Shown piece after piece: positions 33,639 through 35,875 of a DNA stretch of 39,497 nucleotides (position 1 is the stretch's first letter; each line of letters opens with the position of its first letter). This DNA comes from a virus. Its lineage: Duplodnaviria > Heunggongvirae > Uroviricota > Caudoviricetes. The position numbers were made by a program, and so were the translations under genes. The stretch lies in IMG/VR virus record IMGVR_UViG_2778261536_000006. One strand, 5' to 3'. Under the pieces are notes generated by a model that was given only the letters and a program-made list of their open reading frames with translations, ran no database searches and was not told the origin of the DNA.

Positions 33639-34430
33639 ATGCATCGTATAGACACGAAAACCGCGCAGAAGGATAAGTTCGGCGCGGGTAAGAACGGTTT
33701 TACCCGTGGTAACCCCCAGACCGGCACACCTGCCACCGATCTGGATGATGACTACTTTGACATGTTGCAGGAGGAGCTTTGCAGCGTTGTGGAGGCATCC
33801 GGTGCCAGCCTGGAGAAGGGGCGGCACGACCAGCTGCTTACCGCGCTTCGTGCGCTGCTGTTAAGCCGCAAGAATCCGTTTGGTGATATCAAATCGGATG
33901 GCACGGTGAAAACGGCTCTCGAAAACCTTCGTTTGGGAGCAGGCGCTCCGCCTATCGGTATTCCGTTCTTCTGGCCGTCTGCTGCCATGCCAAATACCGT
34001 CATGGATGAATGGTCGGACATGGTGTTTCTGAAATTTAACGGGGCGACTTTCTCTGCTTCTACTTACCCAAAGCTGGCACTGATATTTCCTGGGTTGATG
34101 CTACCCGAATTACGCGGTGAGTTCCTTCGTGTTTGGGATGACGGGCGTGGGGTCGATTCAGGGCGAGCGCTGCTGTCCGCACAAGGTGATGCTATAAGGA
34201 ACATATCAGGGAAGCTCTTGGGACTTATGACCACTGCGGGAAGCCAGAGTACAGCAGACGAGTGGGTAACAGGGCCATTTAATGCTGTATACTATGGCGG
34301 CGCTGGTCAAACAACCTTATCGCCCGGTAATAGGTATGACGTAAGTTTTGCCGCCGCCAGAGTTGTACCAACTGCAGAAGAAAACCGACCACGTAACATA
34401 GCATTCAACTTTTTAGTAAGGGCTAAATAA
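33639..34430 (+). CDS. Tail fibre protein (constant N-terminal part plus variable C-terminal part)
   Basis: 263 aa; C-terminal 79 aa lie inside the putative invertible segment; followed by tail fibre assembly gene. Confidence 0.7.
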
Positions 34431-35023
34431 TGAAACCTGTTTTTGGTGAAAATGGACTGGCTACAGTGCCGGGTGATATGCGGTGTTTTTATTATGATGC
34501 AGTAACGTATGAATATACGGGCTGGTCTGATGAATATATTAATACTGGTGTAAGTATGCCAGCCTGTTCCACTGGTATTGGCCCGGGAGAAAACATTCCG
34601 GGGAAAGTGGCAGTATTTACTGGTAAGGGATGGAGCCATGAAGAAGACCACCGCAATGAGACTGTTTACTCAACAGAAAATGGCGCAGCTGTTACAGTGG
34701 ATTATATCGGTGCCATCAAAGACGGTTATGTCACGCTTTCACCGTTAACGCCATATGATAAATGGGATGGTGAGAAATGGGTGACAGATACTGAGGCACA
34801 GCATAGCGCCGCAGTAGAAGCGGCAGAAGCACAGCGCCAGTCACTGATTGATGCAGCAATGGCTTCCATCAGTCTGATTCAACTGAAATTACGGGCCGGG
34901 CGGAAGCTGACGCAGGCAGAAACAACCCGACTTAACGCCGTGCTGGATTACATTGACGCGGTGACGGCAACAGATACCAGCACAGCGCCGGACGTCATCT
35001 GGCCTGAACTGCCGGAGGCGTAG
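34430..35023 (+). CDS. Tail fibre assembly protein
   Basis: 197-aa ORF immediately after the tail-fibre gene. Confidence 0.7.
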   Translation: MKPVFGENGLATVPGDMRCFYYDAVTYEYTGWSDEYINTGVSMPACSTGIGPGENIPGKVAVFTGKGWSHEEDHRNETVYSTENGAAVTVDYIGAIKDGYVTLSPLTPYDKWDGEKWVTDTEAQHSAAVEAAEAQRQSLIDAAMASISLIQLKLRAGRKLTQAETTRLNAVLDYIDAVTATDTSTAPDVIWPELPEA

Positions 35024-35435
35024 GCCATTCAATATCTGGCGCACAGGAAGTATCGACCAGTTCCAGTGCGTCCAGATAATCCAGCCACAAATTATATTGC
35101 GCCAGTTCCTCACCTTTCAGACGACCAATAGCCGCTTTACCAGGCCATTGTTTACTGTTCATATAATCGTTGGCCTGATTAATCAGTTGCTGCTTTTCCA
35201 GTTCGGCTGCAGCAATCTGTTCCTCATGTGTTGGTGGTGGAATTTCAGACCATGCAGGAAAACCATTTTCTCCAGCGATACGGATTTTTCCTTTCGGCGG
35301 TAATCCGGAAAACTCAATATACACTTGCTCATCAACTTCAACAGCATCATCTGGCCATGAGTCAGCTTGAGTGTAATCCTCTTTCATCTCCAGCGGATAG
35401 AAAGAGTTTGTAGTCGCGGAATATATGTAATTCAT
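34995..35435 (-). CDS. Alternative tail fibre assembly protein (inverted orientation)
   Basis: 146-aa minus-strand ORF convergent with the plus-strand assembly gene, overlapping its 3' end. Confidence 0.65.
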   Translation of the reverse strand: MNYIYSATTNSFYPLEMKEDYTQADSWPDDAVEVDEQVYIEFSGLPPKGKIRIAGENGFPAWSEIPPPTHEEQIAAAELEKQQLINQANDYMNSKQWPGKAAIGRLKGEELAQYNLWLDYLDALELVDTSCAPDIEWPTPPAVQAR

Positions 35436-35456
35436 TTTTCACTCCATATAGCTAAA

Positions 35457-35804
35457 TTAACAGCCTAACGCTAAAAATGAAGCGCCGAGGCCAGGAGTAC
35501 TGGCTCTGGATATAAATTTAACCGGGTCGGGACTAAAACCTGCACAGGCAATATAACCAACATCCCCGCTACCTGGTGTATAGTCTTGTGAGACCAAAAC
35601 ACGCAGACATCTGTTTGGAAATGCAATCGGGAAATGGGTTACTACATCCTGTGCAATGCCTGGAGCGCCGATTGAGCCCCACTGAAGAATAAAACCTGAT
35701 GGTAATTTTTGATATCCAGTATCTGAAACAGAAAGCGTGAAGCTACCCATATCAGGTATCTGATTCGCCCCTGTCCCTACATTCCTTTTAGCCGCTTCTC
35801 CCAA
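35457..35804 (-). CDS. Alternative tail-fibre C-terminal variable segment (not independently expressed)
   Basis: Minus-strand frame open from the right repeat; shares an A(I/K)RN(I/V) junction with the plus-strand fibre; track start is an internal TTG. Confidence 0.55.
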
Positions 35805-35848
35805 ACCAACCTTTCAAATATTTTTCTGAATCAGGTGATATTTCGCCT

Positions 35849-35875
35849 CTTCTCCTGTTTTTACAACAGGAGAAG
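35849..35875 (+). promoter_or_regulatory. Perfect 11-bp stem hairpin overlapping the invertase Shine-Dalgarno
   Basis: CTTCTCCTGTT (35849-35859), loop TTTAC, AACAGGAGAAG (35865-35875); the AGGAG at 35868-35872 lies in the right arm, 8 nt before the ATG. Confidence 0.35.

Follow-up and report, generated by a model that had tools for sequence, protein, structure and literature searches.

A probable Din-family tail-fibre inversion switch beside a PinL-like invertase in an SfV/e14-like prophage at dusA

From Mu, P1 and e14 onwards, it has been known that tail-fibre segments can be invertible, and a further segment of this kind appears to be located in the 39,497-nucleotide stretch of Caudoviricetes DNA that we have analysed here (IMG/VR record IMGVR_UViG_2778261536_000006), the whole of which is referred to as "the window". 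Between positions 33639 and 36444, a tail-fibre gene is followed by two convergent genes for fibre assembly chaperones, by a fragment of a second fibre end and by a serine DNA invertase. This locus raises the question of where the strands would be exchanged, which fibre proteins the exchange would produce, which enzyme would carry it out and how that enzyme would be controlled.

We consider it highly probable (about 90%) that the region is a Din-family, i.e. Gin/Cin/Pin-type, tail-fibre inversion switch for host range, carried by an SfV/e14-like prophage that is integrated at dusA. The crossover sites, the reading frames and the catalytic residues are in place, and both orientations of the segment occur in natural relatives. 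The switch is a genuine and intact one of the classical kind, and it adds little to what is already annotated as such in deposited genomes; the real research value lies in the possibility that the clade of its invertase, which we call "PinL-like" after the pinL gene of phi80, is regulated differently from Hin and Gin.

Crossover sites, fibre ends and the adjacent invertase

The structural elements of the switch are the following, listed from left to right.

33639-34430, plus strand: tail-fibre gene, 263 amino acids
33639-33929, plus strand: constant 5' part of the fibre gene, 97 codons (MHRID...TALENL), outside the invertible segment
33916-33941, plus strand: left crossover site (pixL-like), 26 bp, CTCTCGAAAACC TT CGTTTGGGAGCA, with the core TT at 33928-33929
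33930-35807: invertible segment, 1878 bp between the core dinucleotides
33930-34430, plus strand: variable fibre end A (expressed orientation), 166 amino acids, tail-collar type
34430-35023, plus strand: tail-fibre assembly chaperone for end A, 197 amino acids (Pfam Caudo_TAP, E=4e-28; PHROG 105, tail fiber assembly)
34995-35435, minus strand: tail-fibre assembly chaperone for end B, 146 amino acids (Pfam Caudo_TAP, E=5e-38; PHROG 188)
35457-35807, minus strand: variable fibre end B (silent orientation), 114 amino acids and a stop codon, gp53-like C-terminal domain (Pfam Gp53-like_C, E=1.7e-15)
35457-35804, minus strand: open reading frame of 115 amino acids that contains the Gp53-like_C fragment
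35796-35821, plus strand: right crossover site (pixR-like), 26 bp, TTCTCCCAAACC AA CCTTTCAAATAT, with the core AA at 35808-35809
35881-36444, plus strand: serine DNA invertase of the phi80 PinL-like clade, 187 amino acids (Pfam Resolvase and HTH_7)

The P segment of e14 inverts at the experimentally defined sequences TTGGTTTGGGAGAAGG / CCTTCTCCCAAACCAA (PMC12529663). When the whole window is searched with the 16-mer TTGGTTTGGGAGAAGG, allowing for up to three mismatches, only two matches occur, i.e. at 33928-33943 on the plus strand and at 35794-35809 on the minus strand, where 0.33 matches would be expected by chance; the strongest and longest inverted repeat of the region is the one that is formed by 33923-33947 with 35790-35814. 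The comparison of the two window sites with the sites that were extracted from K-12 e14, D108 and P1 has revealed an arrangement, AAACC-NN-GGTTT, that is common to the window sites, pix, cix and gix. Both window sites have the layout 12+2+12, they are located in inverted orientation, and their core is TT when each is read towards the segment. The left site agrees with e14 pixL (CTCTCGAAAACCTTGGTTTGGGAGAA) at 24 of the 26 positions, while the inner half and the core of the right site are identical to e14 pixR; the outer half of the right site is degenerate, yet it is kept as CCTTT within the clade of the invertase.

Apart from these two sites, one candidate in the collar domain (34120-34145, GTTTGGGA) has been considered and rejected: its core would be CG instead of TT, the fusion would be out of frame, and the sequence corresponds to a conserved coding motif, LRVWDD.

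With respect to the reading frame of the fibre, the core TT provides the second and the third base of codon 97 (CTT, leucine), so that, judging from the frames, a crossover at the core would join the constant 97 amino acids in frame to either the collar-type end of 166 amino acids or the gp53-like end of 114. Inversion in silico (33639-33929 followed by the reverse complement from 35807 downwards) gives an open protein of 211 amino acids, in which ...TALENL is continued by ...LALGC. In the correct context, the gp53-like end lacks its own start codon; with the true sites at hand, this silent fragment can be annotated as the second end of the fibre.

The same boundary is found when the fibre is compared with other proteins. 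Over its first 102 residues, the fibre agrees at 99% with the N-terminus of K-12 e14 StfP, beyond which the identity collapses; the N-terminal PHROG modules end at residues 91-97, and the C-terminal families begin at residues 88-95. From residue 94 onwards, 168 of 170 residues are identical to the C-terminus of a P2-like fibre of 442 amino acids, while at the level of DNA the homology to SfV-type phages, in which the switch is absent, stops at about position 33939. End A matches a PHROG family of tail collar fibres (residues 88-263); Pfam has returned nothing for the expressed fibre at the default threshold, apart from which there is a weak match to Collar (E=0.0015).

The invertase, which adjoins the segment and is of the Gin/Pin family just as a sequence-only reading of this DNA had proposed, consists of a Resolvase domain (residues 2-135) and an HTH_7 domain (residues 138-179), matches a PHROG family of DNA invertases, and can be aligned over residues 1-181 with no gap to Gin of Mu (3UJ3, E=1e-56). 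All of the catalytic residues, i.e. R7, S9, R42, D64, R65 and R68, are present; they do not vary when the enzyme is aligned with PinE, Gin and Cin, and they are kept in 117-120 of 120 sequences of the clade. The pocket residue, Phe87, is also present in the enzyme. Of its residues, the enzyme has 50% in common with Gin, 53% with Cin, 55% with PinE and 54% with two further enzymes of the Pin type; it is 100% identical to the annotated DNA invertase of phage SKA5, and the region of the gene is about 82% identical in DNA to phi80 pinL.

A search among 5.8 billion proteins has yielded a tight clade with 77-99% identity in Escherichia, Salmonella, Citrobacter, Klebsiella, Enterobacter, Serratia, Kluyvera and others; further loci with 65-82% identity have been found in Morganella, Erwinia, Shimwellia and Apirhabdus, where one genome per species was scanned. 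By these comparisons, the invertase is to be placed in a little-studied, PinL-like side branch of its family. Among the titles that literature searches on pinL and phi80 and on Fis-independent tail-fibre invertases have yielded, none characterises the clade, the mentions of pinL themselves having been left unopened.

The exchange that these elements predict is as follows. The invertase of 187 amino acids would bind as dimers to the two inverted 26-bp sites at 33916-33941 and 35796-35821; both sites would be cut at their shared 2-bp TT core, one half of the tetramer would rotate and religation would follow, so that the 1878-bp segment would flip. In the orientation of the window, the fibre of 263 amino acids with the collar-type end would be made along with its chaperone of 197 amino acids; in the other orientation, the fibre of 211 amino acids with the gp53-like end would be made, the gene for the chaperone of 146 amino acids being brought downstream of it. 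The two fibres would presumably recognise different receptors. A gp53-like chimeric fibre, StfE2, is made upon inversion of the e14 P segment and is reported to block the adsorption of phage T2 (PMC12529663).

Orientations among relatives and alternative explanations

Both of the junctions that inversion would create have been built and searched in 5,426 complete Escherichia coli genomes. The junction of the constant part with the gp53-like end is contiguous in 382 genomes (at least 80% of the query covered), the best matches being single full-length pieces with up to 98% identity, and the junction that places the collar-type end beside this invertase occurs in 8 genomes at about 90%. The junctions as they occur in the window have been found in 72 genomes (left) and in 3 genomes (right).

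Pairwise alignment has further revealed three relatives in which the flanks are colinear with the window and the interior is reversed: locus L004 (NZ_CP162198), which is an e14-like prophage with pinE; locus L005, which is the same dusA prophage, with a right flank and an invertase gene that are 98.7% identical in DNA; and SKA5 (locus L006), which carries the segment in the opposite orientation next to the identical invertase. In all three, the reversed block begins at window positions 33928-33942 and ends at 35795-35809, i.e. at the two sites. The orientation of the window is common to loci L001 and L002. The bases just inside the inner half-sites are GGTT on the left and GCGG on the right in L001 and L002, and GCGG on the left and GGTT on the right in SKA5; such a swap would be expected of an inversion that takes place at the core. 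Outside this phage type, a Klebsiella locus (L010) and a Serratia locus (L012) with invertases of the same clade carry the fibre cassettes of another type of myovirus and differ from each other by inversion, with breakpoints at the analogous sites TTCTCACATACC TT GGTTTGGGAGAT and TTATAAAAAAGG TT GGTTTGGGAGAT.

As a side observation, an anti-phage gene, Avs2 (AVAST type 2), is located at 8405-10701 of L004 (NZ_CP162198), directly downstream of the pinE-type invertase, and provides an example of a defence gene beside an inversion module.

The two sites are also the limits of a cassette that is found in another phage family. Positions 33917-35814 of the window are 99.8% identical to positions 4001-5898 of locus L003, a P2-like prophage (NZ_CP064847) whose constant fibre part (272 amino acids before the junction) is unrelated and whose invertase is a canonical one of the Pin type. 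Since the homology to L003 ends within the two crossover sites and the SfV-type homology ends at about the left one, the sites appear, from these alignments, to act also as seams of horizontal cassette exchange between phage families. The use of Din-family sites as exchange seams is reportedly an old observation, made by Sandmeier and Arber for Min/Cin. The cassette in the P2-like prophage is a clean example of receptor-binding modules that move between unrelated phages.

Several points weigh against the reading of this region as a working switch that is turned by its own enzyme. Both orientations have been seen between genomes and not within one population of this strain, and the exact cassette, with the left inner half-site CGTTTGGGAGCA, has been found in only one other locus, L003, where it has the same orientation. 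Of the 12 positions of the inner half-sites, 2 differ between left and right, and the palindrome of the right outer half-site is a weak one. Moreover, activation of Hin by Fis and the enhancer involves K47, K/R48 and K/R51 in helix B and Q151, R154 and L155 in helix 1 of the DNA-binding domain (PMC3798978), and the invertase is without three of these six residues, having K46, E47, T50, Q150, A153 and L154 in Gin numbering. Lastly, other Pin-type invertases, which are usually present in E. coli, act in trans on such sites (PMC12529663), and therefore the orientation variants do not prove that the adjacent enzyme is active.

One alternative, which we consider improbable, is that the locus is a frozen relic with the architecture of a switch, which flips no more, either through drift of the sites or through inactivity of the divergent invertase on them. 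The two changes in the left inner half-site, the degenerate right outer half-site and the single orientation of the exact cassette would fit such a relic, as would the decay of many e14-type loci, with pseudogenes in L002 and L005. Against it, all genes of the switch are intact in the window, the catalytic residues and the invertase as a whole are strongly conserved across genera, and near-identical loci occur in both orientations; as regards the sites, the G at the core-proximal position is also present in functional ones, i.e. in the outer half of e14 pixR and in D108 gixL.

The other alternative, to which we also assign little probability, is that the segment is flipped in trans by a host enzyme of the PinE, PinQ or PinR type, while the PinL-like enzyme has a different target or none. 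In its favour, the left site and both inner halves correspond in essence to the pix sites of e14, whose P segment is inverted by each of PinE, PinQ and PinR (PMC12529663). This alternative is countered by the location of the clade directly beside an invertible fibre cassette in the unrelated Klebsiella and Serratia myovirus prophages, with analogous sites and both orientations, and by the clade-specific outer half, CCTTT..., of the invertase-proximal site. Our preferred reading is that of the active switch: this copy would flip, and the adjacent enzyme, rather than another Pin of the cell, would be responsible.

We give next to no credence to the remaining proposal, that of the sequence-only reading, in which the crossover occurs at imperfect 11-bp repeats (GCTAWAAGGAA), joining a constant part of 184 amino acids to an end of about 110. 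The repeats are real, matching at 10 of 11 positions (GCTATAAGGAAC at 34191-34202 and the reverse complement of GCTAAAAGGAAT at 35781-35792), and they are codon-aligned in both frames; however, they are at chance level, with 22 inverted 11-mer pairs observed in the 2.4-kb region (10 or 11 matching positions, arms 500 bp or more apart) against a mean of 14.7 (range 4-27) in base shuffles, and alignment has shown no likeness to the Din-family sites of 26 bp. In L004, L005 and SKA5, the left breakpoint is found upstream of position 34191; positions 34104-34212 are inverted in SKA5 and 33928-34157 in L004 and L005, and therefore position 34191, which is inside the inverted block, cannot be the crossover. 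The module boundaries in the PHROG families and in the P2-like fibre are located at residues 94-97 and not at 184. The left flip point is thus moved about 260 bp upstream, outside the segment of 34191-35875 that had been proposed, and the left site after codon 97 shortens the constant part from 184 to 97 amino acids. Neither of the two findings that were named as fatal to the sequence-only reading has been made: close relatives show both orientations, not one, and the invertase has its catalytic residues. What has stood is the kind of system, in which the C-terminus of the fibre and the chaperone are exchanged together, along with the two convergent tail-fibre assembly genes (both Caudo_TAP) and, closely, the length of the alternative end, while the crossover sites, the constant part and the segment limits have been replaced.

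Control of the PinL-like invertase

Three elements are of interest with regard to control, i.e. helix E of the protein, the leader of its gene and the 5' part of the coding region; the latter two are located as follows.

35835-35874, plus strand: invertase leader with two hairpins, GGTGA-TATT-TCGCC and CTTCTCCTGTT-TTTAC-AACAGGAGAAG
35899-35970, plus strand: region equivalent to the P1 cin enhancer (gene nucleotides 19-90), a candidate recombinational enhancer

The divergence from Gin in the centre of the invertase, which had been noticed from the sequence alone, can now be located at helix E (residues about 99-120), where the clade has GRYNFRNILSAAQYESDLNSERT and Gin, Cin and Pin have GRFFFHVMGALAEMERELIVERT. 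The motif of the clade, YNFRNILSAAQY, places an asparagine at the position of Hin Phe105, and residues Y103, N104, F105, R106, I108, A111 and Y114 are invariant in all 120 sequences. In Hin, the inactive dimer is locked by Phe105 and Met109, which correspond to Gin 104 and 108, and the F105N mutant inverts rapidly in vivo and cleaves independently of Fis in vitro (PMC4513852); these lock residues are absent from the clade, Asn104 and Ile108 being found instead in 120 of 120 sequences. As for the residues that correspond to the Fis and enhancer contacts of Hin, positions 50, 150, 153 and 154 are variable within the clade.

The second hairpin of the leader, which has an 11-bp stem, encloses the Shine-Dalgarno sequence (RNA fold z = -4.85). 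In the clade members of at least 80% identity that come from six other genera, both stems are retained throughout, while the loops vary and the closing pair has changed from C-G to T-A in a compensatory manner. As far as can be judged from the fold and its conservation, the hairpin would limit the translation of the invertase. Weaker stems that could occlude the ribosome-binding site (RBS) have been read by eye upstream of pinE and of P2-like invertase genes.

The 5' part of the invertase gene is conserved at the level of DNA. Synonymous diversity among 15 clade genes is 0.43 in codons 7-30 and 0.61 elsewhere (p=0.0035), and the codon for Ser9 is TCA in all 20 genes that were examined. In the P1 record, the enhancer is annotated at nucleotides 19-90 of cin, and the positions of the candidate Fis sites have been inferred from this annotation. 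A crude score, based on an ad hoc consensus and too coarse to be decisive for the gene of the window, picks nucleotides 23-37 and 71-85 in gin, cin and pin, 48 bp apart; the window gene agrees with the first candidate Fis site at 13 of 15 positions and with the second at 10 of 15, with the loss of the outer G, and the region and the position of the second site vary within the clade. Judging from these patterns of conservation, the 5' coding region of the invertase is overlapped by some cis element, which would be a candidate for a Fis enhancer.

The clade combines a rebuilt helix E that carries asparagine, the lack of a conserved patch of Fis contacts and a hairpin that buries the RBS; therefore, control may differ from that by Fis and the enhancer, and it may rest on the level of the enzyme or on another partner, and not on the canonical Fis/enhancer invertasome. 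That the PinL-like clade is a distinct subclass, widespread in the Enterobacterales and gated differently from Hin and Gin, is nevertheless a tentative suggestion that we ourselves hold to be rather doubtful. The clade departs from Hin and Gin at residues that mediate control by Fis and the enhancer, which makes it a natural test case for the evolution of this control.

The prophage and its likeness to known systems

Around the switch, the following features of the window have also been assigned.

33051-33635: Mu-gp48-like baseplate wedge gene (ymfQ type)
36588-39121: DinI-like gene, followed by a tyrosine integrase and by dusA, i.e. the right end of the prophage

On the evidence of its genes and alignments, the whole 39.5-kb window reads as an SfV/e14-like temperate myovirus prophage that is integrated at dusA, as is seen alike in several E. 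coli genomes. The first 25 kb are 98% identical over 86% to phage vB_EcoM-720R4, and SKA5 and SfV have large blocks in common with the window. SKA5 carries a dusA 5' fragment of 123 nucleotides beside the same integrase, and therefore the 5' end of dusA appears to be the place of integration, with a replacement start provided by the phage. The first two open reading frames of the window (positions 1-989; 190 and 139 amino acids) match PHROG families of unknown function and correspond to the genes of SKA5 that follow the attachment site; therefore, the window begins just inside the left end of the prophage.

The convergent 3' ends of the two chaperone genes share 29 bp (34995-35023). No terminator-like site with a T-run has been found between them, and the D108 record has bidirectional terminators annotated at this position. 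A promoter and terminator scan of 33400-36900 has given counts that are not above those of shuffles and no invertase promoter; scans of the window for Rfam families and tRNAs have returned no matches. NCBIfam has no equivalog for any of the five proteins that were compared with it, the invertase having sub-threshold serine-recombinase matches alone.

Of the known systems, phi80 has a pinL-dinL module that is about 82% identical in DNA to that of the window, with the difference that only the invertase and a pseudogene fragment of a collar domain remain there. SKA5 (OR670062) is of the same phage type as the window and has DinI, a dusA-type integrase and an invertible fibre cassette that was deposited in the opposite orientation; its cassette is related, but not identical, to that of the window.

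With the Gin system of Mu and D108 and the Cin system of P1, the window shares the fold and the length of the invertase, the inverted 26-bp sites and the S/U and S'/U' logic, i.e. a constant and a variable part of the fibre with a cognate chaperone. The protein identity to Gin and Cin is 50-53%; the core of the window sites is TT, as in cix and pix, while that of gix is TC. The segment of the window is shorter than those of Mu, D108 and P1, and its constant part has only 97 amino acids; the helix-E motif is GRYNFRNILSAAQYESDL in the window and GRFFFHVMGALAEMEREL in Gin and Cin.

As regards the fibre, the closest relation is to the e14 P segment of K-12 (stfP-tfaP-tfaE-stfE'-pinE), which has the same gene order. 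The ymfQ gene and the constant fibre part (33000-33946) are 95.9% identical in DNA between the two, the sites are of the pix type in both, each has one gp53-like end, and the segments are of similar size (1878 bp in the window, 1797 bp in e14). The invertase of the window, on the other hand, is not the orthologue of PinE, to which it is 55% identical and which belongs to another clade; PinE, Cin, Gin and the P2-like enzymes have one common helix-E motif that is absent from the clade of the window. The variable ends also differ, the collar-type end of the window being derived from a P2-like lineage and its gp53-like end being distantly related to that of e14. Finally, e14 is a remnant that is located at icd, whereas the window holds a full-length prophage that is located at dusA.

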